A stretch of 64,000 bases of DNA from positions 5,510-69,509 of the forward strand of contig JBDRBE010000004.1 in NCBI GenBank assembly GCA_043823085.1, read 5' to 3'. Under the pieces are notes generated by a model. It did not search any database, was not told the DNA's origin, and worked only from the letters and a program-made list of their open reading frames with translations. This DNA comes from Candidatus Levyibacteriota bacterium. Its GTDB lineage: Bacteria; Patescibacteriota; Microgenomatia; Levybacterales; UBA12049. This document shows, one piece after another, positions 3,264 through 43,461 of the stretch (its first letter is position 1; each line of letters starts with the position of its first letter). Both the position numbers and the translations under genes were made by a program.

Positions 3264-4028
3264 GTGAATAAAATTTATCTCTCTATTGTTATTCCTTGCT
3301 TTGATGAAATGACAAATCTTCAAAAAGGAGTTTTGGATAAGGTTGAGCACTTTTTGAATAAAAAGAATTATCTTTGGGAAGTTATTGTAGTTGATGATGG
3401 TTCAAAAGACGGGAGTATTGATTTTTTAGAACAATTTATCAGGGAAAATCCAAAGTTTAGAATGATGAAAAATTCTCATCTTGGGAAAGCGGGAGCTGTA
3501 ACAGCCGGGGTTTTGGATTCGAAAGGGGAATATATTCTTTTTACAGATATGGATCAGGCTACTCCAATTGAAGAAGTTGAAAAGCTTTTGCCATATTTCG
3601 ATGAAAAAAATGGGAATTTTGATGTGGTAATTGGATCAAGAGATACAAAGCGTAAAGGTTCACCATTAACACGTCTTATTATTTCAAGGGCGGCCATTAT
3701 ATTAAGGAAACTTCTTATTGGAATGAATGAGATCTCAGATACCCAGTGTGGTTTTAAGGCGTTTAAAAATGATGTTGCAAAGCAATTATTTACAAAAGTC
3801 AAAAATTTGCACAATGGATTTAGAAAGATATCAGGATCAGCTGTAACTGCAGGATTTGATATTGAGCTTTTATATCTTTCGGAAAAGCTAGGTTATAAAA
3901 TCAAAGAAGCTCCGGTTAATTGGCTATATGTGGAAACAAGGAGGGTAAATCCAATTAAAGATTCAATAGAGGGGTTAGTTGATTTAATCAGGATAAAGAT
4001 AAACGATATTAGAGGAATTTATAAGTGA
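3264..4028 (+). CDS. Family-2 glycosyltransferase, Dpm1/GtrB/CsbB-like polyprenyl-phosphate sugar synthase
   Basis: GTG start. Motifs SIVIPCFDE..VIVVDDGSKDGS..TDMDQ..GSR and QCGFKAF indicate a DPM1-like GT2 fold. Confidence 0.8.
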   Translation: MNKIYLSIVIPCFDEMTNLQKGVLDKVEHFLNKKNYLWEVIVVDDGSKDGSIDFLEQFIRENPKFRMMKNSHLGKAGAVTAGVLDSKGEYILFTDMDQATPIEEVEKLLPYFDEKNGNFDVVIGSRDTKRKGSPLTRLIISRAAIILRKLLIGMNEISDTQCGFKAFKNDVAKQLFTKVKNLHNGFRKISGSAVTAGFDIELLYLSEKLGYKIKEAPVNWLYVETRRVNPIKDSIEGLVDLIRIKINDIRGIYK

Positions 4029-12423: not shown

Positions 12424-13133
12424 ATAAAAGAGTACCCGAGCTTTCAATTTTTTTTCCCTTTTGGAATGAGGAAAAAAATATAGAAAAAGTTGTTAGGAAT
12501 GCCATTCCTGTAGCCGAAAAAGTGGCTTTGAAATGGGAAATTATTATGATAGATGACGGATCGTCCGATAAAACACTTAAGATTTGTCAAAAACTAGCTA
12601 GGGAAAATAATCATCTTCGGGTAATTTCACACAAGCCAAACAGAGGATATGGTGCCGCACTTAAAGAAGGATTTGAAAACGCAAAATACGATTTGGTTGT
12701 TTTTAATGACGGTGATGGGCAATTTGATTTTTCGCAAGTGAATAAATTTATTGAGAAAATAGATGATGCGGATATGGTTATTGGTTTTAGAAAAAAACGT
12801 TTAGACAATCCCTTCAGACATTTCTTAATGAATCTTCTAAAGATTTGGGATGCTGTATTTTTTGGATTCTATTTTCGCGATATCGATTGCGGTTTTAAAT
12901 TATTTAAAAAAAGAGCCTTACAGAGAATGGAGCCTTTTATGTCAGAAGGAGCGATGATAACAACCGAAATTTTGGCAAAAGCAAAGAAGAGCAAGATGAA
13001 AATTTTGGAAGTTGAAGTTTCTCATTTTCCAAGAAAATATGGCGATCAAAGCGGAGGGAATCTTAGAGTTATTGTTCGGGCAATTAAAGAGAGTTTTAAT
13101 TTATGGAATAATTTAAATTATGGAAGAGCTTGA
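12420..13133 (+). CDS. Family-2 glycosyltransferase, Dpm1-like
   Basis: GTG start overlapping the upstream stop (GTGA). Motifs FFPFWNEE..IIMIDDGSSDKT..NDGDGQFD (DXD region) and CGFKLF. Confidence 0.75.
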   Translation: MNKRVPELSIFFPFWNEEKNIEKVVRNAIPVAEKVALKWEIIMIDDGSSDKTLKICQKLARENNHLRVISHKPNRGYGAALKEGFENAKYDLVVFNDGDGQFDFSQVNKFIEKIDDADMVIGFRKKRLDNPFRHFLMNLLKIWDAVFFGFYFRDIDCGFKLFKKRALQRMEPFMSEGAMITTEILAKAKKSKMKILEVEVSHFPRKYGDQSGGNLRVIVRAIKESFNLWNNLNYGRA

Positions 13134-14575: not shown

Positions 14576-15487
14576 ATGAATAAAATTTCGGCAGTTATAA
14601 CCTGTTTTAATGAGGAAAAAAAGATAAAAGATTGTTTGGAGTCAGTCCTTTGGGCAGATGAGATTATTTTGGTTGATAATTCATCGAAAGACAAAACAGT
14701 CGAGATTGTAAAGAAATATACAAAAAATATTTTTAACCAAGAAAACGATCCTGGTGCGATAGATATTTTAAAGAATTTTGGTTTTTCTAAAGCAAGTAGC
14801 GAGTGGATTTTAAGTCTTGATGCCGATGAGAGAGTAACGCCTGAATTAAGAAAAGAAATTGAATCAACAATCAACAACCAGCAATCAGCAATCAACGGCT
14901 ACTGGATTCCGAGAAAAAATATTATTTTTGGTAAATGGATAGAACATACCGGTTGGTATCCTGATTTTCAATTAAGATTGTTTCGAAAAGGGAGAGGAAA
15001 GTTTATTAAGAAACATTTTCATGAAATGCTTGAACTTAATGGTAAAACTGAAAATCTTAATTCTAATTTACTGCATTATAACTATGAAAGTGTTCTGCAG
15101 TTTTTAAACCGTCATGCCAATATTTATGCGCAAAATGAAGTAGAGAATATTTTGGAAAAAGGTTATATTTTTAATTATCTTGATGCAATTCGTTTCCCTT
15201 TTAACGAATTTTTAAGTAGATTTTTCAAAAGAGAAGGATACAAAGATGGGATTCACGGATTAGTGCTTTCGCTTCTAATGGCTTTTTATCATTTGATTAT
15301 CTTTTCGTTAATTTGGGAGAAAGAGAAATTCAAAGAATTGGAAAAAGAAAATATTCTTAAGGCAACGGAAAATGAGTTCAGAAAAGAGTGTAAAGATATT
15401 GGGTTTTGGTTCTTAAATGAGAAGATAAAACAAACGGGCAACCTATTTAGCAAATTTCGGTTAAAAGTAAAACGTAAGTTTTTTTGA
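14576..15487 (+). CDS. Family-2 glycosyltransferase, WaaE/KdtX-like
   Basis: Motifs SAVITCFNEE, ILVDNSSKDKT, SLDADERVTPEL, NGYWIPRKN and WYPDFQLRLFRKG. Paralogs at 19099 and 41143. Confidence 0.75.
   Translation: MNKISAVITCFNEEKKIKDCLESVLWADEIILVDNSSKDKTVEIVKKYTKNIFNQENDPGAIDILKNFGFSKASSEWILSLDADERVTPELRKEIESTINNQQSAINGYWIPRKNIIFGKWIEHTGWYPDFQLRLFRKGRGKFIKKHFHEMLELNGKTENLNSNLLHYNYESVLQFLNRHANIYAQNEVENILEKGYIFNYLDAIRFPFNEFLSRFFKREGYKDGIHGLVLSLLMAFYHLIIFSLIWEKEKFKELEKENILKATENEFRKECKDIGFWFLNEKIKQTGNLFSKFRLKVKRKFF
14862..14896. repeat. Imperfect heptanucleotide tandem repeat (aatcaac/aaccagc/aatcagc, 5 units) inside a GT2 CDS
   Basis: 7-nt periodicity over 35 nt, read directly. Encodes STINNQQSAING just before the NGYWIP motif. 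Confidence 0.6.
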
Positions 15488-16181: not shown

Positions 16182-17141
16182 ATGAAAAAAATCGCAATCG
16201 TTATCCTTCATTTTAATGGAGAAAAAGATACACTTCGATGCTTAGATAGTATTGAACAGTTATCCTGCGAAGCAGGATCTCGCTTCGCGAGGCAAGTTAT
16301 CGTGGTTGATAATGGATCAGATGAAGAATTCAAAGTTCCCGCCTTCGCCCCTTCGACTCCGCTCAGGGCTTCGGCGGGCAAACAAAATTCAATTAAGGAA
16401 GTAAAAGTTATTAGGAATGAAAGAAACTTGGGGTTTGCGGGTGGAAATAATGTCGGAATCAAATACGCGCTTGAAAATGGGGCGGATTACGTTCTAATTC
16501 TCAATAATGATACTTTAGTTGATAAAGGTTTGATTACGGAATTATTAAAAGTTGCAGATTCCGATGAAAAGATTGGAATTGTTGCTCCTAAAATATATTT
16601 TGCCAAAGGATTTGAATTCCATAAAGACCGATACCGTGAAAGCGAACGCGGTAGAATAATTTGGTATGCGGGAGGGATCATGGATTGGAAAAATATTATT
16701 GGGCATCATCGGGGAGTTGATGAGGTTGATAAAGGTCAGTTTGAAAAAGTAGAAGAAACGGATTATGCTACCGGTTGTTGCATGTTAATAAAAAAAGAAG
16801 TATTCGAAATGATAGGCTTTTTGGATAAAAAATATTTTTTATATTATGAAGATAGTGATTTCAGCCAAAGATCAAAATTAGTAGGGTATAAAATAAAATT
16901 TGTCCCAAAAGCGATTGTTTGGCACAAAAATGCGGGTTCGGCCGGAGGTTCGGGTTCTTCAATGCAGGATTATTATATAACTCGAAACCGTTTAATTTTT
17001 GGAATAAAATATGCTTCTCTTAGAGCGAAGTTGGCTTTAATAAAAGAAACCATCAAATTGTTTTTTTCCGGAAGACCGTGGCAAAAAAGAGGTGTTTTTG
17101 ATTTTTATTTAATGAAATTTAATAAAGGCAGTTACCGATAA
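16182..17141 (+). CDS. Family-2 glycosyltransferase (rhamnosyltransferase-like; paralog of 57373) carrying GC-rich in-frame insertions
   Basis: Motifs AIVILHFNGE..VIVVDNGSDE..NLGFAGGNN..ILNNDTLV; C-terminal YYEDSDF. Compared with the 57373 paralog it has extra GC-rich segments at 16265-16294 and 16334-16385. Confidence 0.75.
   Translation: MKKIAIVILHFNGEKDTLRCLDSIEQLSCEAGSRFARQVIVVDNGSDEEFKVPAFAPSTPLRASAGKQNSIKEVKVIRNERNLGFAGGNNVGIKYALENGADYVLILNNDTLVDKGLITELLKVADSDEKIGIVAPKIYFAKGFEFHKDRYRESERGRIIWYAGGIMDWKNIIGHHRGVDEVDKGQFEKVEETDYATGCCMLIKKEVFEMIGFLDKKYFLYYEDSDFSQRSKLVGYKIKFVPKAIVWHKNAGSAGGSGSSMQDYYITRNRLIFGIKYASLRAKLALIKETIKLFFSGRPWQKRGVFDFYLMKFNKGSYR
16258..16301. repeat. GC-rich palindromic in-frame insertion (ctgcgaagcaggatctcgcttcgcgaggca) flanked by 7-bp direct repeat agttatc
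   Basis: Two short hairpins (cctgc-gaa-gcagg; ctcgc-ttc-gcgag) in an AT-rich gene, with agttatc on both sides. Encodes SCEAGSRFARQ, which the paralog lacks. Confidence 0.6.
16327..16392. repeat. GC-rich in-frame insertion (cccgccttcgccccttcgactccgctcagggcttcggcgggc) flanked by direct repeat aattcaa
   Basis: Terminal inverted cccgcc/ggcggg. Shares cccttcgact...ctcagg with the intergenic element at 26779-26834. Encodes PAFAPSTPLRASAGKQ, which the paralog lacks. Confidence 0.55.
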
Positions 17142-19098: not shown

Positions 19099-19863
19099 AT
19101 GAAACTTTCAGCGATTGTTATTGCCAAAAACGAAGAGAATATGATTGCGGATTGCTTAGATAGTCTTTCGTTTTGCGATGAGGTTATCGTTATTGATAAT
19201 GGATCAACTGATCGGACATCGGAAATTGCCAAAAAAATGGGAGCAGAGATATTTATCTGTCAAACAGATGATTTTTCAGAGATGAGAAATTTTGGTCTAT
19301 CTAAGGCAAAAAATGAATGGATTTTATATGTGGATGCGGATGAGCGCGTCACAAGTGAGCTTGTACACGATATCAAATATCAAATATTAAATATCAAAGA
19401 CGTAAATATCACTGCGTTTAATATTAAGAGAAAGAATTTTTATTTTGGTTCGCAAGCGGAGAATGAGTGGCCGTACATAGAACATTTAGAGAGACTGTTT
19501 AAAAAAGAAAATCTGAAAGGTTGGAGGGGAAAACTTCATGAGAGTCCTATTATTGAGGGTAAAGTGGGGGAGTTAGAGGGATTTTTATTGCATTATACTC
19601 ATCAGGATCTTTCTTCAATGCTGGAAAAAACCATCGAGTGGTCAAAAACAGAGGCAGAGTTAAGATTAAAAGCAAATCATCCCAAAATGACCTGGTGGCG
19701 GTTTCCCAGGGTAATGGTAAGTGCTTTTTTAAATTCTTATATCAGGCAAGGCGGATGGAAAGTCGGAACAATGGGGTTAGTTGAAAGCATTTATCAATCT
19801 TTTAGTATTTTTATAACCTACGCCAGGCTTTGGGAGTTACAAAATAGAGAAAATGCAAATTAA
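19099..19863 (+). CDS. Family-2 glycosyltransferase, WaaE/KdtX-like
   Basis: Motifs LSAIVIAKNEE..VIVIDNGSTDRT..YVDADERVTSEL. Paralog of 14576 and 41143. Confidence 0.75.
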   Translation: MKLSAIVIAKNEENMIADCLDSLSFCDEVIVIDNGSTDRTSEIAKKMGAEIFICQTDDFSEMRNFGLSKAKNEWILYVDADERVTSELVHDIKYQILNIKDVNITAFNIKRKNFYFGSQAENEWPYIEHLERLFKKENLKGWRGKLHESPIIEGKVGELEGFLLHYTHQDLSSMLEKTIEWSKTEAELRLKANHPKMTWWRFPRVMVSAFLNSYIRQGGWKVGTMGLVESIYQSFSIFITYARLWELQNRENAN

Positions 19864-22490: not shown

Positions 22491-23561
22491 GTGAGAATTG
22501 GAATTTACGATCCTTATCTTCGAGGATTAGAGGGTGGAGAAAAGTACATGCTGACGATTGCCTCTTGTTTGTCAAAGAGTCATAATGTTAGTGTTTTTTG
22601 GGATGAGAAATTAATTTTAGATAGAGCAAGCGAAAAATTTGCCATAGATCTTAAAAAAGTTGGATTAGATAAAAATTTTTTTTCCGCAGACTTTAATACT
22701 TTCCAAAGAATAAAAGAACTTAGAAAATATGATAGAATAATTTTTTTAAGCGACGGGAGCATTCCTTTTATATTTTCCAAAAAACTAATTCTTCATTTTC
22801 AGTTTCCCGTCGAGTGGATTAGTCCATCATTAAAGACAAAATTTAAACTTTCCCGCGTAAAAAAAATTATTTGCAACTCTTATTTCACAAAGTTTTATAT
22901 TGATAATAAATTCAATGTAAACAGTGTTGTATTATACCCTCCGGTAGAGATAAAATACGACAATAAAATTAAAAAAGAAAATATCATCCTCCACATGGGA
23001 AGATTTGGGAGAACGATTGAAGGAGCAAACTATAAAAAACAAGATGTTATGATTAAAACTTTTTGTCAGATGATTGATGATGGTTTAAAGGACTGGAGAT
23101 TTGTTCTTGTTGTTGGTGTAAAAGAAGAAGATGAGGTGCGATTCCAAAGTTTAAAAAAAATGGCCACTGGTTATCCGATAGAATTTATTAAAAATCCTAC
23201 AAACAGTAAATTATGGGAAAATTATTCAAAGGCAAAAATCTATTGGCATGCGAGCGGTTTTGGTGAGGATTTAAAAAAACATCCAGAATACGCCGAGCAT
23301 TTTGGCATCTCAACTGTTGAAGCAATGGGTGCAGGATGTGTGCCCATAGTTATCAATGAAGGAGGACAAAAAGAAATAGTTGAGGATAATAAAAGTGGCT
23401 TTTTGTGGAATTCACTTGAACAATTAAAAAAACAAACATCAGAATTAATTAAAGATGGCGATTTATGGGAGAGATTATCAAAAGGATCAAAAAAAAGAGC
23501 GGAAATCTTTAGCGGTAATAGATTTTGTCGTGAAATTAACGAAATTATTGATGAAAAATAA
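22491..23561 (+). CDS. GT4-family (group 1) glycosyltransferase
   Basis: GTG start. C-terminal EHFGISTVEAMGAGCVPIVINEGGQKEIV is the GT-B/GT4 signature. Confidence 0.75.
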   Translation: MRIGIYDPYLRGLEGGEKYMLTIASCLSKSHNVSVFWDEKLILDRASEKFAIDLKKVGLDKNFFSADFNTFQRIKELRKYDRIIFLSDGSIPFIFSKKLILHFQFPVEWISPSLKTKFKLSRVKKIICNSYFTKFYIDNKFNVNSVVLYPPVEIKYDNKIKKENIILHMGRFGRTIEGANYKKQDVMIKTFCQMIDDGLKDWRFVLVVGVKEEDEVRFQSLKKMATGYPIEFIKNPTNSKLWENYSKAKIYWHASGFGEDLKKHPEYAEHFGISTVEAMGAGCVPIVINEGGQKEIVEDNKSGFLWNSLEQLKKQTSELIKDGDLWERLSKGSKKRAEIFSGNRFCREINEIIDEK

Positions 23562-25830
23562 ATTTTTACCTCTGGTTTTTATTTGTGTTGTTTTTTTTAT
23601 TTTCTTTAGGTCCTTTCTTTTTCAAGGAAGATTACCCATCCCTTCAGATACTATTATTGGACTTTATCATCCTTTCCGCGATTATTACGCAAAAGAGTAT
23701 CCAAACGGAATTCCTTTTAAAAATTTTCTCATAACAGATCCTGTAAGACAGCAGTATCCTTGGCGAAATTTAGTAGTTACGCTTGAGAAAAAATTAGAAC
23801 TGCCTCTTTGGAATCCTTATTCATTTTCGGGAATGCCGCTTTTAGCAAATTTTCAGTCAGCTGTTTTTTATCCATTAAATTTTTTATTTTTTATTTTTCC
23901 TTTTTATCTTGCCTGGAGCATCTTGATTTTCTTGCAGCCATTAATGGCGTGCGTTTTTTTATATTTCTTTTTAAGAAACTTAAAAATCGAGAAATTACCA
24001 AGTTTATTTGGTTCGATGACATTTGCATTTTCCGGTTTTTTTATTGCGTGGCTTGAATGGGGAACGGTAATTCATACAGCTTTATGGTTGCCTTTAATAT
24101 TATTGTCGATAGACAAAATATTTATAAACTCAAAACTACAACTCAAAAATAAAAGCTTATTGCTCTGGACCCTTATTTTCATTTTTTCTCTTGTTTCTTC
24201 TTTTTTTGCAGGGCATCTTCAGACTTTTTTTTATCTTTTTATTTTTTCAGTGGTATTTCTGTTGATCAGATGGTGGCAGTACGGGAGGAATAAAAAAGCG
24301 GTTTTGCTATTTGCTATTTGCTTCCTGCTATTTGCTATTTTAACTTCAATTCAATGGGCGCCAACGTTGCAATTAATAGGTTTTTCTTCAAGAAGTATTG
24401 ATCAGTCATGGCATGATCCCGGATGGTTTATTCCCTGGCAAAATTTAGTGCAGTTTTTGATTCCCGATTTTTTTGGTAATCCGGCAACGTTAAATTATTG
24501 GGGGGTTTGGAATTACGGGGAATTTATAGGGTATGTAGGATTGCTTCCGTTAATGATGGCAATATTTGCTCTTTTTTTCAGGCGAGACAAAAAAACCTTA
24601 TTTTTTGGATTCTTATTTTTTCTCTCTTTGATTTTTTCATTGCCTACAATTTTTGCAAAGGCTCCATTTTTTCTAAAAATTCCATTTATTAGTACGTCTC
24701 AACCAACAAGACTTTTATTCATTACTGATTTTTGTTTGGCAGTTTTATCTGCAGTAGGCTTTGAACATTTTTTAAAAAACAAAAAAGGAATATTCTACGT
24801 TTTGGGATTTATCGGTTTTATTTTTGTTTCAGTTTGGGCATTTATTGTTATTGGAAAAGGTTTTAAAATCATAACTTTTGAGAATTTGAGTATCGCAAAA
24901 AATAATCTATTGCTTCCCACGGTTTTGTTTATTTTTTTCTTTATTCTAATATCAATTTATAAATTGTATCCCCAAAAAAATAAATATAGATTATTTATTT
25001 TATTAATAATTCCATATATTATGCTGTTTGGATTAATTTTTGATTTAGTACGTTTTGGGTGGAAGTTTACCCCTTTTAATCCAAAAGATTATCTTTTTCC
25101 GCAAACCTCAACAATCAAATTCTTGAAGGAACAGGAGGGACTTTTTAGAATTATGTCAAGCGATAGTACTATACTTCCGCCAAATTTTTCCGTTTTTTTC
25201 CGCTTGCAAAGCGTTGACGGGTATGATCCGTTGTATATTCAAAGATATGCGGAGTTAATGGCGGCTTATGGAAGAATGAAGCCTGATATTCACGAGCCTT
25301 TTGGATTTAATCGTATAATTACTCCGCAAAATCAGGGACGCATTATGAATTTTTTAGGCGTTAAGTATGTTATTAGCGGAAAAAGTAATTTTCCTCCGGA
25401 AAATTTAGAAAAAGTTTTTAGCGAAGGAGAGATCACGGTTTACAAAAACAAAGAAGCATTTGATAGATTCTTCTTTGTGGCAGATACAATAGTTGTTAAA
25501 GACAAGCAGTCTGCAATTGAAGCGATGTTCGATACAAACTATCTTCTTAATGAGAGAGCAATAATCGAGAATACTAATGAGCAGAAACTTATTAACGCAA
25601 ATTGGTCAAAAGGCAGCGTTGTCTTATTAAAATATACTGAAAATAAAGTTTTAATAAAAACATACAATAAAGGAAATGGGTTTTTGGTTTTTACCGATAC
25701 TTATTATCCTACTTGGCATGTTAGAATTGATGGAGTAGAAACGAAAATATATTTGACTGATTTTAATTTCCGGGGAATAATTGTCCCTAAGGGAACGCAC
25801 ATGATAGAGTTTTCTGATTCATTATTTTAA
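23551..25830 (+). CDS. YfhO-family large membrane protein (A3)
   Basis: Start chosen at MKNKFLPL (ATG 23551, overlapping the GT4 stop by 11 nt) rather than ORF start 23455. RQQYPWRNL..LPLWNPYSFSGMPLLANFQSAVFYP; C-terminal YYPTWHVRIDGVETKIYLTDFNFRGIIVPKGTHMIEF. Confidence 0.7.
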   Translation: MKNKFLPLVFICVVFFIFFRSFLFQGRLPIPSDTIIGLYHPFRDYYAKEYPNGIPFKNFLITDPVRQQYPWRNLVVTLEKKLELPLWNPYSFSGMPLLANFQSAVFYPLNFLFFIFPFYLAWSILIFLQPLMACVFLYFFLRNLKIEKLPSLFGSMTFAFSGFFIAWLEWGTVIHTALWLPLILLSIDKIFINSKLQLKNKSLLLWTLIFIFSLVSSFFAGHLQTFFYLFIFSVVFLLIRWWQYGRNKKAVLLFAICFLLFAILTSIQWAPTLQLIGFSSRSIDQSWHDPGWFIPWQNLVQFLIPDFFGNPATLNYWGVWNYGEFIGYVGLLPLMMAIFALFFRRDKKTLFFGFLFFLSLIFSLPTIFAKAPFFLKIPFISTSQPTRLLFITDFCLAVLSAVGFEHFLKNKKGIFYVLGFIGFIFVSVWAFIVIGKGFKIITFENLSIAKNNLLLPTVLFIFFFILISIYKLYPQKNKYRLFILLIIPYIMLFGLIFDLVRFGWKFTPFNPKDYLFPQTSTIKFLKEQEGLFRIMSSDSTILPPNFSVFFRLQSVDGYDPLYIQRYAELMAAYGRMKPDIHEPFGFNRIITPQNQGRIMNFLGVKYVISGKSNFPPENLEKVFSEGEITVYKNKEAFDRFFFVADTIVVKDKQSAIEAMFDTNYLLNERAIIENTNEQKLINANWSKGSVVLLKYTENKVLIKTYNKGNGFLVFTDTYYPTWHVRIDGVETKIYLTDFNFRGIIVPKGTHMIEFSDSLF
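24305..24340. repeat. Interrupted heptamer repeat tgctatt x2 + tgcttcc + tgctatt x2
   Basis: Read directly. The same ATTTGCT/TGCTATT unit recurs at 36056-36083 and 40139-40156 in other gene families. Encodes LLFAICFLLFAIL. Confidence 0.5.
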
Positions 25831-25833
25831 CTT

Positions 25834-26781
25834 ATGAATATCAGTATTGTTATTCCGAATTATAATGGGGAAGAGTTATTAGAAAAGAATTTACCAAAAG
25901 TAATAGAAGCAATTTCCGAGTATAATGGCGGCGAGATTGAATTTGTTATAGTCGATGACGGTTCGACGGATGATTCAATTGAGAAAATCAAAAATCAAAA
26001 ATCAAAAATCAAAAATACAAATGTAAAATTAAAAATTATTGAAAATTCGAAGAATTTAGGATTTTCCTCAACAGTTAATCGTGGAGTAAAAGAGTCAATG
26101 GGGGAGATTATTATTCTGCTCAATACAGATGTTATACCAGAGAAGAATTTTTTAGGACCTCTTCTTTTGCATTTTAACGATCCAAATGTTTTTGCTGTTG
26201 GATGTATGGATAAAAGCATAGAGGATGGTAAGGTTATTTTGCGAGGCAGGGGGATTGGCAGATGGGAGAGAGGATTTTTTGTTCACAAGAGAGGGGAGGT
26301 TGATAAGAAAGATACGCTTTGGGTCAATGGGGGCAGTGGCGCTTTTAGGAAATCAATTTGGGATAAGATTGGAGGTTTCAATGAACTTTATAATCCTTTT
26401 TATTGGGAAGATATTGATCTTTCCTATCGTGCACAAAAAATGGGCTATAAAATATTATTTGAACCCAAAAGTATAGTTGTTCACGAGCATGAGAAAGGGA
26501 TTATTAAGAAGAAAATGTCTTTATCAAAAATTAAAACAGTCGCCTATCGGAATCAAATAATTTTTACTTGGTTAAACATCACCGATTTAGATTGGCAGTT
26601 TCAGCATTTTTTTTGGTTGCCCTATCATCTCTTTAAATCTTTGATACACAGGAACAGGGAGTTTTTAATTGGTTTTTTTCAAGCTCTAATTTTACTTCCA
26701 AAGATTATAAAAACATCTTCCAAAATACAGAAGTTATTCGTAAAAAAAGATAAGGAAATTATTGGAGATTTTTTAGAATGA
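25834..26781 (+). CDS. Family-2 glycosyltransferase
   Basis: Motifs ISIVIPNYNGEE..FVIVDDGSTDDS..NLGFSSTVNRG..LLNTDV..YWEDIDLSYR. Confidence 0.75.
   Translation: MNISIVIPNYNGEELLEKNLPKVIEAISEYNGGEIEFVIVDDGSTDDSIEKIKNQKSKIKNTNVKLKIIENSKNLGFSSTVNRGVKESMGEIIILLNTDVIPEKNFLGPLLLHFNDPNVFAVGCMDKSIEDGKVILRGRGIGRWERGFFVHKRGEVDKKDTLWVNGGSGAFRKSIWDKIGGFNELYNPFYWEDIDLSYRAQKMGYKILFEPKSIVVHEHEKGIIKKKMSLSKIKTVAYRNQIIFTWLNITDLDWQFQHFFWLPYHLFKSLIHRNREFLIGFFQALILLPKIIKTSSKIQKLFVKKDKEIIGDFLE
25986..26015. repeat. Perfect heptanucleotide tandem repeat (aatcaaa)x4 inside a GT2 CDS
   Basis: aatcaaa aatcaaa aatcaaa aatcaaa aat read directly. Encodes KIKNQKSKIKN in the linker after the DDGS motif. Confidence 0.8.
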
Positions 26782-26853: not shown

Positions 26854-27570
26854 ATGAAATTATCAATTATAATTCCGGTTTACAACGAAGAAGGAACAGT
26901 CGCTGAAATTTTAAAGAGAGTAACAGCTTTAAACATTCCCGGTGTAAACAAAGAAGTAATTATTACAGATGATGGATCAACCGATGCAACGGCATCAATA
27001 ATCTCAAATCTCAAATCTCAAATCTCAAATCTCAAAATAATTTATCACAAAAAAAATCAGGGGAAGGGGGCGGCAGTAAGAACTGGAATTAAACATGCAA
27101 GTGGAGATTATATCTTAATTCAAGACGCAGATTTAGAATATAATCCAAAAGATATTATTAGGCTTTTGATACCTGTCAAAGATAAAATTGCCCAAGTAGT
27201 TTATGGTACAAGGCTAAATAGAATGCCTAATTTTACCAGAGATGAAAGAGAGCCACGTTTCCTGCTTCACTATCTTGGCAATAAAGCATTGAGTTTTATT
27301 ACAAGTTTATTGTACGGGCAATGGATTACAGACATGGAAACATGTTATAAACTTTTTCCCAAAAAATCGTTGGAAAAAATAAAACTTAATTCAAAAAGTT
27401 TTGATTTTGAGCCGGAAATTACTGCCAAACTTCTCAAAAATGGATATAAAATACTGGAGATTCCAATAACAACAAACCCAAGAGGATACAAAGAGGGTAA
27501 AAAATTGAATACTTTTAGGGATGGTTCAATAGCCCTTTGGACATTAATGAAATATCGATTTTTTGATTAA
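26854..27570 (+). CDS. Family-2 glycosyltransferase, Dpm1-like
   Basis: Motifs LSIIIPVYNEE..VIITDDGSTDAT..NQGKGAAVRTG..ILIQDADLEYNP. Confidence 0.75.
   Translation: MKLSIIIPVYNEEGTVAEILKRVTALNIPGVNKEVIITDDGSTDATASIISNLKSQISNLKIIYHKKNQGKGAAVRTGIKHASGDYILIQDADLEYNPKDIIRLLIPVKDKIAQVVYGTRLNRMPNFTRDEREPRFLLHYLGNKALSFITSLLYGQWITDMETCYKLFPKKSLEKIKLNSKSFDFEPEITAKLLKNGYKILEIPITTNPRGYKEGKKLNTFRDGSIALWTLMKYRFFD
27001..27035. repeat. Perfect heptanucleotide tandem repeat (atctcaa)x5 inside a GT2 CDS
   Basis: Read directly. Encodes SNLKSQISNLK at the same linker position as the (aatcaaa)x4 repeat in the adjacent GT2. Confidence 0.8.
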
Positions 27571-31532: not shown

Positions 31533-33224
31533 ATGAGAAAACAATTTATAGCCCTCTTTTTTATCATTCTTGTTGCTTCCTTCCTCCGTTTTTATCAATT
31601 GGGGACAATTCCTGCTGGTTTAACTAATGACGAGGCGAATACGGGCTACGATGCTTTTTCGCTCCTTCTTACCGGTCGCGATCAATGGAATAATTTTTTA
31701 CCGATAACTAATTTTATTGGTTTTGGAGATTATCCTCCGCCGCTCTATAGGTATCTTTCTATTGTTCCTATTTCTCTTTTTGGTTTAAATATGTTTTCAG
31801 TTAGATTTATTTCCGCACTTTCTGGTGTTTTGTCGGTCGTGGTTTTATATTTTTTAATCAAGAAAATTTTTAACCAAAAAGCAGCTATTTTTAGCGCATT
31901 ATCTCTTGCAATTCTTCCCTGGTCTATCGGTTTGAGCAGAGTTGCTATTGAGTCAAATCTGGCAATCCTTTTTTTAATCACTGCTCTTTATTTTGGAATA
32001 GCGCTAAAGTCTGATAAAAGTATTTTCTTTTCTGTCATATTTTTGGTTTTATCAATTTTTACCTATTCTGCCTATACACTTTTTGCGCCTTTGGTTTTTT
32101 TGCTGATTTTGTTTTTTAATTATAAAAAAGTAAAAACAAAGATACTTTTATTTTCGATAATTTTATTTTTATGTCTTTGTCTTCCACTTTTTGTTCATAA
32201 AGGGGCGGCTTCGACGAGATTCTCCCAAATTGGAATCACCCAAAACATAAATAGTATAGGGTTAATGAATGTTTTAAACGATCAAAGGGGACAATGTCTC
32301 AATTCGTTCAATCCTTTGATGTGTAAATTATCGGAAAATAAACCGGTACTTTTTACGGGTGTTTTTTTCAAGAATTATTTGTCCCACTTCTCGCTTAATT
32401 TTTTATACGCCAAAGGGACAGTAACACAGTTTTCGATTTTGGAGGAGAGGGGGTTGGATTATTTATTTTGCATCATTTTTCTTACCTTAGGTCTATATTT
32501 CCTCATTGCAAAAAATAAAAATACCAAAATTTCCTTAGTGGTAATTCTTCTTTTTCTTTTTTCAGCGATTCCTGATTCTCTAACAGGAGATGGAAATTAT
32601 TCCAGGGCTTCAATGATGCAGCCTTTCATCGCTATTTTGAATGGATTGGGTTTAGCTTTTCTTTTTGCTTTATTAAATAAGATAAAAAATAAAAATTTAA
32701 AGATTTTAGGAATGTTTTTTATAGCCTTTTTAATTATGTTTTCAATATCCTCGTTTTTTGTTAACTATTTAACTTACTTTAAAAATAATTATGCAATGTA
32801 TTCGCAATATGGCTATAAAAATTTGATGGAATATGTCGGTAAGGTAAAAAATGACTATGAAAGAATATACATATCTAAGCATTTAAATGATACCAAGCAA
32901 TACATATATTATTTATTTTTTAATAAATATGATCCAAGAAAATTCCAGACAAAAACGAACATAGGATATCATTTGGAAGATAACGGGTGGGTCTCCGTAG
33001 ATAGGATTGATAACGTTTACTTTGTACAAAACTTGCCACTAATCTCTAAAAAATTGACCAATTTGAACAATAACATTCTGTATATTTCGAATCCTGTTGA
33101 TTTTCCAAAAGGAGTGAAAACAGAATTTATAACGAAAGATAAGTTAGAAAACGTTATTTTTAAAGCAGTTAAAAAAGAAAATTTGATAGAATATTATCAG
33201 GAATTTGATTATTTAAATGAGTAA
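31533..33224 (+). CDS. ArnT/PMT-like GT-C glycosyltransferase (GT39/83-like) D1
   Basis: LRFYQLGTIPAGLTNDEANTGYDAFSLLLTGRDQW..DYPPPLYRY..FGLNMFSVRFISALSGV is a classic N-terminal DE-motif loop of the 4-amino-arabinose/mannosyl transferase family. Confidence 0.75.
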   Translation: MRKQFIALFFIILVASFLRFYQLGTIPAGLTNDEANTGYDAFSLLLTGRDQWNNFLPITNFIGFGDYPPPLYRYLSIVPISLFGLNMFSVRFISALSGVLSVVVLYFLIKKIFNQKAAIFSALSLAILPWSIGLSRVAIESNLAILFLITALYFGIALKSDKSIFFSVIFLVLSIFTYSAYTLFAPLVFLLILFFNYKKVKTKILLFSIILFLCLCLPLFVHKGAASTRFSQIGITQNINSIGLMNVLNDQRGQCLNSFNPLMCKLSENKPVLFTGVFFKNYLSHFSLNFLYAKGTVTQFSILEERGLDYLFCIIFLTLGLYFLIAKNKNTKISLVVILLFLFSAIPDSLTGDGNYSRASMMQPFIAILNGLGLAFLFALLNKIKNKNLKILGMFFIAFLIMFSISSFFVNYLTYFKNNYAMYSQYGYKNLMEYVGKVKNDYERIYISKHLNDTKQYIYYLFFNKYDPRKFQTKTNIGYHLEDNGWVSVDRIDNVYFVQNLPLISKKLTNLNNNILYISNPVDFPKGVKTEFITKDKLENVIFKAVKKENLIEYYQEFDYLNE

Positions 33225-34878
33225 GTTTTTTAATTGGAAGTTAATATTAATTTTTATAATTATTCTTGCGGGATTTTTAAGATTTTATAAGCTTTCATCA
33301 AATCCTCCTTCTCTGACATGGGATGAGGCGGCTTGGGGATATAATGCTTATTCTTTGGGAATTGATGCAAGAGATGAATTCGGCAGATTTCTGCCTTACG
33401 ATTATCTTGAATCATTCGGCGATTTTAAACCTCCTGCCTACGCGTATTTAGACATATTGCCTATAAAAATTTTTGGACTTAATGAATTTGGCGTTCGGTT
33501 TCCTTCAGCGCTTTTTGGCGTGCTAACAGTTTTAGCTACTTATTTTTTGGTAAGAAGAATATTTCCTAATGCGAAAAAATTTTCAATTTTCAATTTTCAA
33601 TTTTCAATAGCGGAGATATCAGCTTTTATTCTTGCTATATCCCCGTGGCATATTTTGCTTTCCCGTGCCGCATTTGAAGCAAACGTGGCTACATTTTTTC
33701 TGGTTACGGGAGTCTGGCTGTTTTTAGCAGGAGCCCATGAGAAAAAATGGTGTTTGCCTTTCTCTATTTTTTTCTTTGTCCTTTCCCTTTATGCCTTTAA
33801 CACTTCAAGGATTGTAGCGCCTCTTCTGGTTTTATTATTAATGATTGGTCTTAGAAAACAGCTTTTAGAGCGAAAAAAAGAAGCAATAATAGCTTGTATT
33901 GTCGGAGTAATTCTTGTTTTGCCAATAGCACGATTTTTACTTTCGCCTCAGGCAAGTCTTCGATTTCGCGAGGTAAATATTTTTTCGGATGCAAGCGTAA
34001 TTAAAACAGTTAATCAGGAAATTAAAAATGATAATAATGCTTTTTGGTCAAAAATTATTCATAACAGGCGTTTTGCATATGGGGTTGAGTATTTTAAACA
34101 TTATTTTGACAACCTTAGTCCCGACTTTTTGTTTATAAAAGGGGATGGTAATCCAAAATTCTCGATTCAGACAGTTGGGCAGATGTATCTTTGGGAAATA
34201 CCCTTTTTTATCGGAGGAATTTTGTTCATTTTTCGAAAAAGGCAAGGATATTGGTGGATTGTTCCGTTCTGGCTTGTTTTAGGAATTATTCCGGCAGCAA
34301 CCGCTCGAGAAACGCCGCATGCATTAAGAATAGAAACAACTCTGCCAACGTTTCAAATTCTAACAGCCATAGGCTTAGCGACGGCAATAGAATTTTTATT
34401 GGCAGTGAAGAATAAAGGATTGATTACAAAACTATTAAAACTATTTGTGATATGTTATTCGCTATTCGCTATTTTCAATTTTTCATATTTTTATCATGAT
34501 TATTTTACTCATTATCCGATACAATTTTCCGGAGAATGGCAATATGGATACAAAGAATCAATTGCTTTCGTTTCCGAAAATTTAAGTAAATATGATAAGG
34601 TTGAAATTACCGACGCACTTGGTAGACCTTATATTTATTATTTATTTTACACAAAAGAAAATCCCCAGGATTTTAGAGCATCTTTAAAAGTCAAAAGAGA
34701 TGTTTTTGGCTTTGTTAATGTAACTGGATTTGGTAAATATGAGTTTAAAAGTAATCTATCGATTGATAAAAATACCCTTTTTATTAACTCGCCTGTCAAC
34801 GTGCCAAAAAATGCGGAAGCGCTAAAAACGTTTTACCTTTTAGACGGTAATTCTATACTTTCTGCGTATTCATTATGA
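33217..34878 (+). CDS. ArnT/PMT-like GT-C glycosyltransferase D2
   Basis: LRFYKLSSNPPSLTWDEAAWGYNAYSLGIDARDEFG..FKPPAYAYL..FGLNEFGVRFPSALFGV. Tandem paralog of D1 and D3. Confidence 0.75.
   Translation: MSKFFNWKLILIFIIILAGFLRFYKLSSNPPSLTWDEAAWGYNAYSLGIDARDEFGRFLPYDYLESFGDFKPPAYAYLDILPIKIFGLNEFGVRFPSALFGVLTVLATYFLVRRIFPNAKKFSIFNFQFSIAEISAFILAISPWHILLSRAAFEANVATFFLVTGVWLFLAGAHEKKWCLPFSIFFFVLSLYAFNTSRIVAPLLVLLLMIGLRKQLLERKKEAIIACIVGVILVLPIARFLLSPQASLRFREVNIFSDASVIKTVNQEIKNDNNAFWSKIIHNRRFAYGVEYFKHYFDNLSPDFLFIKGDGNPKFSIQTVGQMYLWEIPFFIGGILFIFRKRQGYWWIVPFWLVLGIIPAATARETPHALRIETTLPTFQILTAIGLATAIEFLLAVKNKGLITKLLKLFVICYSLFAIFNFSYFYHDYFTHYPIQFSGEWQYGYKESIAFVSENLSKYDKVEITDALGRPYIYYLFYTKENPQDFRASLKVKRDVFGFVNVTGFGKYEFKSNLSIDKNTLFINSPVNVPKNAEALKTFYLLDGNSILSAYSL
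33579..33606. repeat. Perfect heptanucleotide tandem repeat (attttca)x4 inside an ArnT-like CDS
   Basis: Read directly. Encodes KFSIFNFQFSI. Confidence 0.8.
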
Positions 34879-36503
34879 GTAAAAAAATTATTATTATTTT
34901 ATTTCTAATTCTTGCGATTGCTACAGTTTTACGTTTTTATAAACTTGGTGATATCCCGCCGTCACCGGATTGGGATGAAGTTGCTTTAGGTTATGATGCA
35001 TATTCTATAATTCATACAGGACGTGATGAATACGGAAAGTTTTTACCGGTTGTTTTGCGATCATTTGATGATTATAAACCGGCTTTATATGCTTATCTTT
35101 CTGTCCCGTCGGTTTTCTTTTTTGGACTAAATGAATTTAGCGTTCGGTTTCCATCCGCCTTATTAGGTGTTTTAACTGTTTTTGCAACATTTTTTCTTGT
35201 AAAGGAATTATTTAAAAGAAACGAGATAGCGCTTCTTGCATCATTTTTTTTGGCGATTTCTCCCTGGCATATTCAGTTTTCAAGAGTTGGTTTCGAATCA
35301 AATATAGGTGTAGCTTTTAATGTTTTTATGGCGCTTTTTTTTATTAAAGCATTTAGAAAACCCTACTTTTTACTTTTTTCTGCGTTTTTTGCCGGCTTAA
35401 ATCAGTATATTTATCAAAGCGATCGGGTTTTTACGCCACTTTTACTCTTAGCGCTGGTCATTATTTATTGGAAAGACTTGTTTAAGATTTCTAAAAAATA
35501 TCTTTTGACATCGGTGATTTTAGGACTAATTGTCGTTTTGCCAATGATTATTTACATCGCAACCGATAAACAAGCTCTTCTTCGTGTTTCTGGAACAAGT
35601 ATTTTTTCAAGCCAAACCGAATTGCTCAAAAATGACATTCCAAAACTTCTTCGCGATACGGCAAAGAATGATAAAATTGGATTAATTCTTGACAACAGAC
35701 GTTTCACTTTTGCTAAAATAATAGCATCAAATTATCTTTCGCATTTTAATCTCAATTGGCTTTTTATAACCGGTGATATTGCAAGACATCATGCTCCGCA
35801 AATGGGCCTTTTGTATCTTTTTGAATTACCCTTTCTTTTTATTGGGTTATACATCTTTATTTTTGGTCAATACTCAAAAAAAACAAAGTTATTAATAATT
35901 GCTTGGTTTTTGATTACTCCAATTCCGGCCTCAATTACGACCGGCGTTCCGCATGCAGTAAGGACTTTAAATTTTCTTCCGACATTTCAAATTTTTATAG
36001 CCATAGGATTAATCACAGCGATAAAATTACTATCAAACATTAAGTTTTGGAAAATATTTGCTATTTGCTATTTGCTATTTGCTATCTTTAATTTTTCATA
36101 TTATCTCAACCAGTATTTTGTGCAATTGAATTACTTTAACTCACAGGAATGGCAGTATGGTTATAAACAAGCTGTTAGTGAGGTAAAAAATATTGGGGGG
36201 AATTATCCAAAAATTGTTGTTTCGGACAAAGAGCCATTAGATAAATCTTACATGTTTTTTCTATTTTATCTTCAATATCCGCCTTTTGAATATCAAAAAG
36301 TTGGTCAATATCAATCAGGTGGATTTGCCGCCCATCATAATTTTGATAAATATGAATTCAGGCCAATAGATTGGCAAAAAGATTCTAAAGCAAAAAACGT
36401 TTTATATATTGGAACACCTGGAGAATTTCCGCCAGATATTGATGCTTTAAAAGTAATTTATAATAAAGACGGCACGCCAGCGATAAAATTAGTTAGGACT
36501 TAA
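34875..36503 (+). CDS. ArnT/PMT-like GT-C glycosyltransferase D3
   Basis: LRFYKLGDIPPSPDWDEVALGYDAYSIIHTGRDEYG..YKPALYAYL..FGLNEFSVRFPSALLGV. Confidence 0.75.
   Translation: MSKKIIIILFLILAIATVLRFYKLGDIPPSPDWDEVALGYDAYSIIHTGRDEYGKFLPVVLRSFDDYKPALYAYLSVPSVFFFGLNEFSVRFPSALLGVLTVFATFFLVKELFKRNEIALLASFFLAISPWHIQFSRVGFESNIGVAFNVFMALFFIKAFRKPYFLLFSAFFAGLNQYIYQSDRVFTPLLLLALVIIYWKDLFKISKKYLLTSVILGLIVVLPMIIYIATDKQALLRVSGTSIFSSQTELLKNDIPKLLRDTAKNDKIGLILDNRRFTFAKIIASNYLSHFNLNWLFITGDIARHHAPQMGLLYLFELPFLFIGLYIFIFGQYSKKTKLLIIAWFLITPIPASITTGVPHAVRTLNFLPTFQIFIAIGLITAIKLLSNIKFWKIFAICYLLFAIFNFSYYLNQYFVQLNYFNSQEWQYGYKQAVSEVKNIGGNYPKIVVSDKEPLDKSYMFFLFYLQYPPFEYQKVGQYQSGGFAAHHNFDKYEFRPIDWQKDSKAKNVLYIGTPGEFPPDIDALKVIYNKDGTPAIKLVRT
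36056..36083. repeat. Perfect heptanucleotide tandem repeat (atttgct)x4 inside an ArnT-like CDS
   Basis: Read directly. Encodes IFAICYLLFAIF. Confidence 0.8.
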
Positions 36504-37994: not shown

Positions 37995-39487
37995 AAAAAT
38001 TTTTGTTATTAACTCTTTTTATCTTACTTTTTTTTATTGCTTTATTTCCTAGGTCGGTTGAAGTCTTGAATCATAATCCGATTTTTGGATTTGATCAGGG
38101 AAGAGATTATTTGGCTGTTAGAAGTATTGTTGTTGACGGAAAATTTACTTTAATCGGTGCGGAAATCGGAGCAGGAAGTGCCGGAATAAACGGAATCTTC
38201 CAAGGACCTTTTCATTATTATTTTTTGGCAATACCGTTTATTATTTTTAGAGGCGATCCCTATGGCGGTCTTTTATTAATGTTTTTACTAAGTATTGCTA
38301 CAGTCTTTTTTAGCCTTTATTTTGGAAAAAAAATGTTTGGATTTTTTGGGGGTTTAATGATGGCGTTGCTTGTGGCAGTATCCCCGCCTCTAATTTCTCA
38401 AGCTCGATTTATTTGGAATTCTCATCAGTCATCTTTATTTGTTCTGCTTAGTTTTTATTTTACTTATTACATTAGAGAAAAAAAGTATAAAAACATTTTT
38501 TTAGCAGCTTTTTTTGCAGGTTTTATTTATAATTTTGAAATTGCGATTGCAATTCCGATGTGTGTGGCAATTTTTATCTATTCGGTTTTAATCTTTCGCT
38601 TTAAGCAGTTAAAGCAGTATTTTTTTATGATACTTGGATTTGTTTTGGCGTTTTTGCCAATGATCATGTTTGAAGCCCGGCATGGTTTCATAGGATTTAG
38701 AGGATTATTAAATTATATTCTTGCACCTAACAGAAACAGTTTCCCACTTGATATGGGAAAGCAATTAATGGATCATTTTAATTCGTTTAAATATAATTTT
38801 TTGGGTACATTTCCGGGTTCTCCGATTCCCTTATGGATGTTGGCTTTAATTATTATTCTCCCGGCTATTTACTTTCTAATAACCGAAAAGAACAAACTCT
38901 TAAAATCTTTTATTTTTTATTTATTCATTTTATTAGTTTCAAGTTTTTTTGTTTTCTCTTTTTTAAAAAATGCAGTTTGGCAGTTTTATCTAATAGAATT
39001 AAATTTTGCATACATAGTATTTTTTGTCTATGTTATTTACTCTTTATTTCAAAGAAAAGCTTATTATTTTTTACCGATCCCTTTGATTTTATCTGTCATT
39101 TTTTTATGGCAGGGAACAATCAGCGCCTATAAAATTTCAAAATACGACTATTCTGATTATGGAGGAACAGAAAAAATGAGCGGAAAGCTCGATGCGATTG
39201 ATTATATCTATAAGGATGCAGAAGGCAGATCATTTGGTGTATTTTTCTTTGCTCCGCCGATTTACACTTATCCCTACGATTATCTTTTAGTATGGTATGG
39301 AAAGGAAAAATATAGTTATTTGCCGTATCATGAAAAGAAAGGGACATTTTATCTTTTGATAGAGCCAGACAGTGCTCGTCTTTGGTATAAGGGTTGGCTT
39401 GAAACCGTTATTAAAACTGGCCAAATTATAGAAACAAAGACGTTACCAAGCGGTTTTATTATCCAAAAAAGATTTGGCGAAATCTAA
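37991..39487 (+). CDS. GT-C fold membrane protein, PMT_2-like DQxRD variant (C3)
   Basis: Start at MKKFLLL (ATGA overlap with the upstream stop). FGFDQGRDYLAVRSIVVDGKFTLIGAEIGAGSAG..GPFHYYF; polytopic. Confidence 0.55.
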   Translation: MKKFLLLTLFILLFFIALFPRSVEVLNHNPIFGFDQGRDYLAVRSIVVDGKFTLIGAEIGAGSAGINGIFQGPFHYYFLAIPFIIFRGDPYGGLLLMFLLSIATVFFSLYFGKKMFGFFGGLMMALLVAVSPPLISQARFIWNSHQSSLFVLLSFYFTYYIREKKYKNIFLAAFFAGFIYNFEIAIAIPMCVAIFIYSVLIFRFKQLKQYFFMILGFVLAFLPMIMFEARHGFIGFRGLLNYILAPNRNSFPLDMGKQLMDHFNSFKYNFLGTFPGSPIPLWMLALIIILPAIYFLITEKNKLLKSFIFYLFILLVSSFFVFSFLKNAVWQFYLIELNFAYIVFFVYVIYSLFQRKAYYFLPIPLILSVIFLWQGTISAYKISKYDYSDYGGTEKMSGKLDAIDYIYKDAEGRSFGVFFFAPPIYTYPYDYLLVWYGKEKYSYLPYHEKKGTFYLLIEPDSARLWYKGWLETVIKTGQIIETKTLPSGFIIQKRFGEI

Positions 39488-39488
39488 T

Positions 39489-42931: not shown

Positions 42932-43461
42932 AGAACAGGCTTCTCTGGGTATTCCTTTTTTTTACTATCACGCTTATGCTCTTTTTATCTTCTCAAGCTC
43001 ATGCTGGGTCTTCTTATGTTCTTCCTTATCCTTCGTCTATGCCTGGAAGTATTTTTTATAAAGTTAATTTAATAAAAGATAAAATATTAGAATATTGGTA
43101 TTTTGGAAATTTTGGTCAGTTTGAATATAATCAAAAGCTCTCGGATAAATATTTAGTTGAGGCAAAAACGCTTTTTGAGTACAGTCAATATCTTTTGGCA
43201 TGTTCTGCCCTTAAAAAATCTAATGAATATTTTGAAAATATTTATCCGAATCTTATTCAAGCCAAAAAAGAAAATAAAAATATATCCAGAAAGCAGCAAT
43301 TATTTAAAGAAGAAGCCCTAAAACATATTGAGGAATTAATTAAGTTAGAAAAAGAAGTTCCAAACAGCTTTTATTGGCAGCCTGAAAAAACCTCACCAAC
43401 AATCCTTAATTTAAAACAATTGATACAAGAATCTATAAACATTAGAAAAACATATTTATGA
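42928..43461 (+). CDS. Hypothetical secreted protein (signal peptide, alpha-helical)
   Basis: Start at MKNRLLWVFLFFTITLMLFLSSQAHA (signal peptide, AHA-G cleavage site), ATGA overlap with the galE stop. No family recognised. Confidence 0.5.
   Translation: MKNRLLWVFLFFTITLMLFLSSQAHAGSSYVLPYPSSMPGSIFYKVNLIKDKILEYWYFGNFGQFEYNQKLSDKYLVEAKTLFEYSQYLLACSALKKSNEYFENIYPNLIQAKKENKNISRKQQLFKEEALKHIEELIKLEKEVPNSFYWQPEKTSPTILNLKQLIQESINIRKTYL

Follow-up and report, generated by a model that had tools for sequence, protein, structure and literature searches.

Heptanucleotide arrays in a glycosylation island of a Candidatus Levyibacteriota bacterium: probable products of a lineage-specific slippage bias, retained in frame

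The window examined here is a stretch of 64,000 nucleotides (positions 5,510 to 69,509 of contig JBDRBE010000004.1) from the metagenome-assembled genome (MAG) of a Candidatus Levyibacteriota bacterium, a member of the Microgenomates within the Candidate Phyla Radiation (CPR), where it lies within a 431-kb contig and includes proteins MFH1832962-84. From approximately 3 to 64 kb the window is taken up by a nearly unbroken, plus-strand glycosylation island, which encodes glycosyltransferases of families 2 and 4 (GT2 and GT4), PMT_2/GT39-like, YfhO and PTPS_related membrane proteins, flippases, GalE and further sugar-nucleotide enzymes. Our subject is a set of three heptanucleotide arrays on the plus strand of this island, which a preliminary description had read either as coordinated on/off switches of glycosylation genes or as the outcome of a lineage-specific slippage bias. 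Tandem Repeats Finder (TRF) and the raw sequence established that the three arrays exist as described, and the peptides which they encode were also as first stated. The first array, AATCAAC AATCAAC AACCAGC AATCAGC AATCAAC (14862-14896; 5.0 copies by TRF, 85% matches), encodes ESTINNQQSAIN at residues 96-107 of its host; the second, composed of AAATCAA with one ATATCAA variant (41423-41451; 4.1 copies, 90%), encodes EIKNQISKIK; and the third, AAATATC AAATACC AAATACC AAATATC AAA (42897-42927; 4.4 copies, 91%), encodes KISNTKYQISK. All three are interrupted, with just 2-2.9 perfect copies each (16-20 nt), and the neighbouring perfect arrays contain 4.4-5.3 copies.

The 14862 array is located in a plus-strand GT2 glycosyltransferase gene (14576-15487; MFH1832962.1, to which P0001 is 100% identical) and the 41423 array in a paralog of that gene (41143-41910, plus strand; MFH1832981.1), while a third paralog (19099-19863), absent from the earlier list, was found to carry an imperfect plus-strand array of ATATCAA (19370-19398; 4.1 copies) encoding DIKYQILNI. 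The three proteins are 38-43% identical and score 74.9, 68.0 and 76.6 bits against Pfam PF00535 (cutoff 23.3), whereas their best scores against NCBIfam equivalogs are 45-52 bits with cutoffs of 182-350, and no WaaE model was among the matches; of the earlier label 'WaaE-like GT2', it is the membership of GT family 2 that the scores bear out. In each paralog the array occupies the same spot between the DADER (DxD) and GYWIPRKN motifs, at aa 91-107 of proteins that are 254-303 aa long. The arrays had been placed immediately before NGYWIPRKN, and while the common site upstream of GYWIPRKN was borne out, four codons (DNEV) intervene in 41143-41910. In an AlphaFold2 model of the 14576-15487 product (45 orthologs; predicted local distance difference test score, pLDDT, of 92.4) residues 96-107 form the end of helix 89-100, the loop 101-105 and the start of strand 106-117, with a local drop in confidence to a pLDDT of 85. 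We take the array site to be a permissive connector that joins the DxD strand to the strand bearing GYWIPRKN.

The third array lies in galE (41921-42931, plus strand; MFH1832982.1), which specifies a UDP-glucose 4-epimerase matching TIGR01179 with 378.4 bits (cutoff 262.3; residues 2-329 on model positions 1-330 of 332) and the GalE structure 2c20 of the PDB with E=8e-92. The array accounts for aa 326-336 of 336, and neither solved structures nor TIGR01179 show homology past residue ~326-331. As had been noted, the array runs up to the start of the downstream DUF5667 gene (42928-43461, plus strand), the ATG of which overlaps the galE stop codon in an ATGA stop/start overlap at 42928-42931; CPR galE orthologs without the array have this same overlap. 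The window GalE possesses 12 residues after the W-x-(W/F)-H motif as compared to 4-7 in CPR orthologs, and in silico removal of three units (21 nt) produced ...WQWHSKISK*, a normal tail. The proposal that this tail is absent from canonical GalE was therefore correct only in part, as the window tail is ~5-7 aa longer but canonical proteins retain 3-7 residues past the end of the homology. Judged from the sequence, the galE array appears to be a lineage-specific extension, by three units (+7 aa), of a dispensable, non-conserved tail. When 7 nt were added or removed in silico the catalytic domain remained intact, the product being either 377 aa long or fused with the downstream DUF5667 ORF (open reading frame), and because a 7-nt change spares the catalytic domain this array cannot switch GalE off. 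A further array on a gene junction was observed in one of the compared loci (these, and the matching contigs, are referred to by L numbers): L107 carries a perfect AAAAATG array of 4.6 copies (12630-12661) between a 19099-type GT2 gene and a YfhO gene, in which each unit contains ATGA, so that any copy number still provides an upstream stop and a downstream start.

Heptanucleotide repetition in the window extends well beyond these three arrays. Perfect arrays of at least three copies at period 7 numbered five in the window, as compared to 0.02 in 50 dinucleotide-preserving shuffles, and none was present at periods of 6 or 8-15. The tandem-repeat excess is real and specific to period 7; no other period longer than 3 nt is over-represented in the window. 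That the arrays are due to chance in an AT-rich genome or to faulty assembly is close to inconceivable: the GC content of the genome is ~32% and A-rich and T-rich units dominate, yet the shuffles and the lack of enrichment at other periods speak against composition, and an assembly artefact is rejected because the same arrays occur in the NCBI MAG, in Logan and in JGI/ENA metagenomes. All 12 window arrays are situated between 11 and 44 kb, within intact ORFs, A-rich units being found in GalE and the soluble GT2s and T-rich ones where transmembrane helices are encoded. Among the GT2 genes, 25834-26781 contains an AAAATCA array of 7.7 copies overall (25984-26036; perfect for 4.7 copies at 25984-26016), which encodes KIKNQKSKIKN within the helix after DDGSTD and is ~7-9 aa longer than in several orthologs, while 26854-27570 contains 5.3 perfect copies of AATCTCA (27000-27036) encoding IISNLKSQISNLK. 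The YfhO-family gene 23455-25830 harbours ATTTTTT in 2.9 copies (23879-23898) and, in a transmembrane helix, TTTGCTA in 5.4 imperfect or 2.9 perfect copies (24303-24340). Perfect arrays of 4.4 copies are found in two PMT_2/GT39-like genes, namely AATTTTC (33578-33608) in 33217-34878, where it represents an insertion of ~4-7 aa relative to orthologs, and TATTTGC (36055-36085) in 34875-36503. TATTTGC recurs in 2.7 copies (40140-40158) in the PTPS_related/PMT_2 gene 39474-41132, and the hypothetical membrane protein gene 43458-44603 contains TTATTTT in 5.1 copies (43615-43651), including a perfect TTTTTAT array of 4.6 copies at 43620-51; all of these arrays are on the plus strand.

For comparison with the window, 80 loci were taken from reference genomes and a further 80 from metagenomes. 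The orthologous metagenome loci, 846 kb in all, contained 23 perfect period-7 arrays as compared to 0-3 at periods 5, 6 and 8-12, and 13 of the 16 arrays in the genome loci belonged to Patescibacteria. The dispersed heptamer family of the preliminary description is therefore real, and it is a property of the lineage, recurring in Microgenomates relatives. Glycosylation genes take up ~87-95% of the sequence in the window and the compared loci. For the compared loci the glycosylation-like share is 87%, and their remaining ORFs (107 kb) contained no array where ~3 were expected.

The spacer between DADER and GYWIPRKN is a lineage-wide heptamer hot spot. At least 17 of 21 period-7 matches (best 21-nt window) were found in the DADE-GYW spacer of 26 of 151 homologs, while periods 4, 5, 6, 8, 9, 10 and 11 gave 0, 0, 0, 1, 0, 0 and 0, respectively. 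The ortholog in L086 carries (CAATCAA)x5, a perfect form of the window 14862 array, and other loci fill the spacer with different units: AAATCCG (L111, 4.4 copies), AAATCGC (L140, 4.3), AAATTGG (L109 and L113, 4.7), AGACCAA (L097, 4.7), ATCCAAC (L128, 4.9) and GAGTTAC (L160); the orthologous site in a 19099-type paralog of L145 bears 4.6 perfect copies of AGTATCA. Spacer length is 21-22 aa in 94 of 117 homologs, with minor classes near +7 aa, and in the 22-aa class the in-register consensus unit is AATCAAC, the last copy of which overlaps the conserved I-N codons (ATC AAC) before GYW. Protein-only data from 120 homologs agree with this, as KSEIRNQ-KSEING, ESRIKNQ-ESGVNG and STINNQQ-STING each back-translate to three xAATCAx copies. 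An 87% relative, L165, possesses the same AATCAAC and AATCAGC variants as the window but in other slots, and divergence between the two was not significantly higher in the array (7/35 nt) than in its flanks (~15/146 nt).

Similar hot spots became evident when 45 perfect arrays were placed on the coordinates of the window proteins. In YfhO (23455) arrays cluster at aa 286-291 (window, L145, L100, L133, L094 and L006), the site of the 24303 array, with perfect arrays of 5.1 copies in L145, L100 and L133, and also at aa ~144, the site of the 23879 array, and aa ~225; further clusters are located at aa ~209-225 of the PTPS_related paralogs, within which the 40140 array lies at aa ~222, at aa ~35 and ~58 of the 16182-type GT2, and at aa ~55 of 25834/26854. 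Pairs of arrays with different units no more than 8 aa apart numbered 49 as compared to 3.2 expected (simulated maximum 17). Two classes of site can be distinguished: the first is conserved in length, with orthologs having equally long peptides of 7-aa periodicity and an array that is perfect or decayed depending on the lineage, and the second consists of recent, lineage-specific insertions of ~7 aa. Side observations concern inserts of another kind. In the GT2 ORF 16182-17141 an imperfect hairpin rich in GC (CCCGCCTTCGCCC / GGGCTTCGGCGGG) is inserted in frame at 16338-16378, its 13-nt arms being 77% complementary (fold z = -1.8). It encodes PAFAPSTPLRASAG, absent from paralogs, and the Logan contigs L001 and L002 both end at it (16366 and 16367). 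Similar GC-rich inserts, unrelated to the heptamer arrays, occur at heptamer hot spots of other orthologs in L116 (2908-2976), L132 (4522-4605) and L150 (5077-5139), as well as at the 26854-type site in L095, L100 and L137, which speaks for the permissive nature of the hot spots. From its sequence the hairpin insert could be a small in-frame element of Microgenomates resembling a miniature inverted-repeat transposable element.

Identical units also recur at non-homologous sites, where 11 pairs with the same cyclic unit were counted as compared to 1.6 expected (P~0.0004; null of stop-free heptamers). ATTTGCT/TATTTGC is present at window 24303, 36055 and 40140, ATTCTTT at L006 5411, 16343 and 16771, ACGAGTT in a GT2 gene (L160 10297) and in YfhO (L006 16585), and AATCTCA at window 27000 and at the N-terminus of a PMT_2 protein of L083. 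The excess, which includes the non-trivial units ACGAGTT and AATCTCA, is what would be expected if arrays or units were copied and pasted by ectopic template switching or gene conversion. However, where a relative free of the array exists the unit derives locally, as seen for the AAATTGGRAATT seed in L096/L120, the I-N codons and the galE seed; the null ignores peptide constraints on the usable units, and no flanking signatures were seen. We consider this route highly improbable. Part of the sharing must stem from amphipathic or transmembrane peptide constraints that are absent from the null. The L083 array just mentioned (3938-3969; AAATCTC in 4.6 copies, the unit also seen at window 27000-27036) lies in the ortholog of the PMT_2/GT39-like gene 34875-36503, where it starts with codon 2 (MKSQISNLKSQITN...), and is the only one found at the classic 5'-terminal position of a contingency locus.

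The regular spacing of I/L residues at i, i+4 and i+7 in the encoded peptides raises the question of whether selection acts on the protein, favouring 7-residue periodic peptides in amphipathic or transmembrane helices, with the DNA period being a side effect. Heptad-like peptides such as EIKNQISKIK, IISNLKSQISNLK and LFFILNSLFLILTS, and the position of sites in helices or transmembrane segments, would be in keeping with this, but the units are identical even at synonymous positions, which exceeds what such selection demands, and orthologs place unlike peptides (KSEIRNPKSE, KIGNWKLEIGNS and QRPKTKDQRP) at one and the same site. No array was seen whose units vary at synonymous positions over a conserved peptide repeat. 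Furthermore, a loop and the start of a strand account for half of what the GT2 array encodes, and the galE array falls in an unconserved tail. Selection at the protein level is accordingly held to be very unlikely. Coiled-coil or heptad selection as such was rejected on the grounds that the GT2 array runs from the end of a helix through a loop into a strand and that units are identical at synonymous positions.

The manner in which array length changes is bound to the reading frame. Successive copies of a 7-nt unit fall into each of the three frames in turn, and only with three of them (21 nt) is a whole number of codons, seven, reached. In the DNA alignment a clean 21-nt gap separates L109/L113 (4.7 copies) from L120/L096 (1.7 copies), which are two separate sub-lineage pairs. 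Differences in copy number seen between species were exclusively in-frame ones of three units. None of the 42 intragenic perfect arrays in the window and CPR loci was out of frame, all of them lying in frames that continue for at least 138 codons, and ~25 of the 42 are in flanking genes that had no role in locus selection. At the GT2 site 159 motif pairs were in frame and none was genuinely out of frame; three apparently out-of-frame motif pairs proved to be spurious. Array position, which ranges from aa 2 to aa 518, displayed no 5' bias.

Independent assemblies cover the two GT2 arrays, whereas no independent contig spans the array of galE. Two independent Logan runs have the 14862 array in the same form as the MAG, and one has the 41423 array unchanged (L003), with contigs crossing both arrays; the population is present in only two Logan runs. 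The three GT2 genes with imperfect arrays are intact in Logan, none of the five genes with perfect arrays was recovered there, and an exact-protein look-up in Logan had no record of the galE, 25834, 26854 and 42928 products. Ten protein clusters at 90% identity were all singletons. The population is nearly clonal outside the arrays. Over ~19 kb of overlapping independent assemblies the sole nucleotide difference is at 29246, where the window has T and the Logan contig L004 has C.

These data bear on the proposal that the arrays, including the three under study, are active contingency loci, that is, hypermutable switches selected for frameshifting glycosyltransferases and thereby generating combinatorial surface glycans relevant to phage and host attachment. 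The length of the unit is not divisible by three, all glycosyltransferase hosts are truncated when one or two units are gained or lost, the hosts are surface-glycosylation genes, and perfect arrays outlast deep divergence at conserved sites. In addition, contigs L003 and L004 break at perfect arrays near the positions predicted for other alleles, the L083 array directly follows a start codon, and there is a precedent in neuO, the O-acetyltransferase gene of the Escherichia coli K1 prophage CUS-3 with the unit AAGACTC, which has 3-53 copies and is out of frame in 65.6% of the complete E. coli K1 genomes that carry it (PMC13001214). Against that figure, not one of the 42 perfect arrays is out of frame, and against the copy range of neuO stand at most 5.3 copies, and array positions show no 5' preference. 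Of the three arrays, all of them interrupted, the two in GT2 genes are invariant across assemblies and the one in galE cannot switch GalE off, while the k-mers that break the assembly graph may originate from other loci or strains sharing the unit, such as the YfhO array of the L145 type. Active contingency loci are for these reasons regarded as unlikely, and the coordinated on/off switching by the three arrays that had been suggested is not supported, given their interruptions, the identity of the two GT2 arrays across assemblies, the absence of OFF states among the 42 perfect arrays and the dispensable tail of galE. In all likelihood the arrays at 14862, 41423 and 42897 are relics that are stable and always ON, as opposed to switches still in operation.

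We favour, with somewhat more confidence than doubt, slippage that is biased towards 7 nt and whose products are sifted by reading frame and structural tolerance, the three arrays being decayed, in frame and stable, and that of galE having left a tail of +7 aa. Of the two earlier readings the lineage-specific slippage bias is accordingly the better one, and it fits the work of Mrazek et al. (2007) as summarised in PMC4679880. The three arrays are heptanucleotide microsatellites in coding regions, presumably created by replication slippage, and the Levybacteria/Microgenomates lineage displays the 7-nt bias strongly in its glycosylation island. A gene would stay intact only where the number of units changes by multiples of three, which are the only states seen, and arrays would be kept where the protein tolerates them, as in the GT2 connector (helix end and loop) and the non-conserved C-terminal tail of GalE. 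At shared permissive sites arrays would be recreated or homogenised with different units in each lineage, and subsequently decay by point mutation.

Several observations weigh against this explanation. In silico changes of plus or minus one or two units truncated every host but GalE within ~35 codons (the GT2s at 100-126 aa), so that loci other than galE could act as switches. Of eight Logan contig ends, three are located within perfect arrays (27011, start of L004; 33602, end of L004; 36056, start of L003). Graph simulation at k=31 revealed that the 37-nt array at 27000 breaks the graph without any polymorphism, whereas the two 31-nt arrays do not when a single allele is present; the L003 start at 36056 falls exactly where it would be expected if the sample contained a longer (TATTTGC)n, and the L004 end at 33602 lies 1 nt away from where an allele shorter by one unit would place it. 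The breaks at the 31-nt arrays hint at copy-number heterogeneity, but are suggestive only. Moreover, perfect arrays persist at the same sites, often with equal length, in orthologs of 50-66% and paralogs of 26-43% identity, a persistence that implies ongoing homogenisation, as selection for mutability predicts, and arrays that were purely a by-product should have been stabilised everywhere by point mutation. It is conceivable, if still a minority view and marginally less doubtful than the switching of all arrays, that the slots holding perfect arrays in the GT2, YfhO, PTPS-related and GT39-like genes across Levybacteria/Microgenomates are selected for mutability and afford multi-gene phase variation, in which case the three arrays would be locked-ON alleles.

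Some features of the island and its relatives were observed in passing. The interval 3264-52480 is unusually rich in paralogous genes resembling membrane glycosyltransferases: at least 13 ORFs of the PMT_2, YfhO or PTPS_related type (489-822 aa) occur there with at least 11 GT2/GT4 genes in between, and all but one are on the plus strand. The Levybacteria/Roizmanbacteria loci L006, L007 and L010 retain synteny with the window island. The MAG records behind L006, L008, L037 and L058 bear the title 'uncultured Gammaproteobacteria', yet these loci contain syntenic and closely homologous counterparts of the Levybacteria island, with 35-41% GC and ~50% protein identity, and their taxonomic labels look wrong. 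Two pairs of plus-strand ORFs overlap, by 107 nt (22491-23561 with 23455-25830; 23455-23561) and by 59 nt (44608-46482 with 46424-48100; 46424-46482). The sequence suggests that 23455-25830 and 46424-48100 probably have over-extended start codons, a frameshift origin being the alternative; orthologs of 23455-25830 align from residue ~57.

Simple sequence repeats (SSRs) in coding regions are a classic source of surface variation in pathogens with small genomes. CPR/Patescibacteria combine tiny genomes and few regulators with an epibiotic lifestyle in which surface glycans probably matter. The window and ~160 related loci contain many 7-nt arrays at conserved protein sites, with units turning over between lineages. 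Read conservatively, they provide a natural example of 7-nt slippage writing 7-residue peptide repeats into enzymes, and heptamer arrays account for the fragmentation of short-read assemblies in these islands. Were the slots instead selected, this would be the first contingency-locus system described in CPR and would offer combinatorial surface-glycan diversity to a reduced genome; this bolder reading would make CPR phase variation testable with existing read sets. A literature search retrieved no report of SSR phase variation or heptanucleotide arrays in CPR/Patescibacteria.

Among known systems, neuO resembles the window arrays in that a coding heptanucleotide repeat lies in an enzyme modifying surface carbohydrates and three units amount to one in-frame 7-residue repeat (PMC13001214). 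It differs in that the neuO array is 5'-terminal and polymorphic, while the window arrays are mid-gene or at the 3' end, have no more than 5.3 copies and include no OFF state among the 42, and there is no sequence relationship to NeuO. The lipooligosaccharide, lipopolysaccharide and capsule loci of Haemophilus, Neisseria and Campylobacter likewise involve several glycosylation genes with intragenic repeats that are not multiples of three, and the position of a tract is conserved while its sequence differs between relatives. Those loci, however, have units of 1-5 nt in long uninterrupted tracts, demonstrated high switching and frequent OFF states, and belong to host-adapted pathogens, as opposed to 7-nt units, short tracts and no OFF alleles found in an uncultivated groundwater-type CPR bacterium; with 4.4-5.3 copies, the perfect arrays of the window are far shorter than known switching tracts. 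According to the summary of Mrazek et al. (2007) in PMC4679880, heptanucleotides are the most abundant class of long SSR in most prokaryotic genomes, a polymerase contact of ~7 nt has been suggested to favour slippage, and units in coding regions are usually multiples of three. Prokaryotic heptanucleotide SSRs, including the cyanobacterial and Beggiatoaceae (TAACTGA) repeats, share with our arrays a strong, lineage-dependent 7-nt excess, but those repeats are mostly intergenic and in Beggiatoaceae one unit dominates. The arrays of the window lineage, in contrast, are almost all in ORFs and in frame, employ many units and occupy homologous protein sites. A prokaryotic preference for 7 nt and heptanucleotide SSRs in coding regions are known, and what is new here is their occurrence in a lineage for which the literature search retrieved no earlier description.

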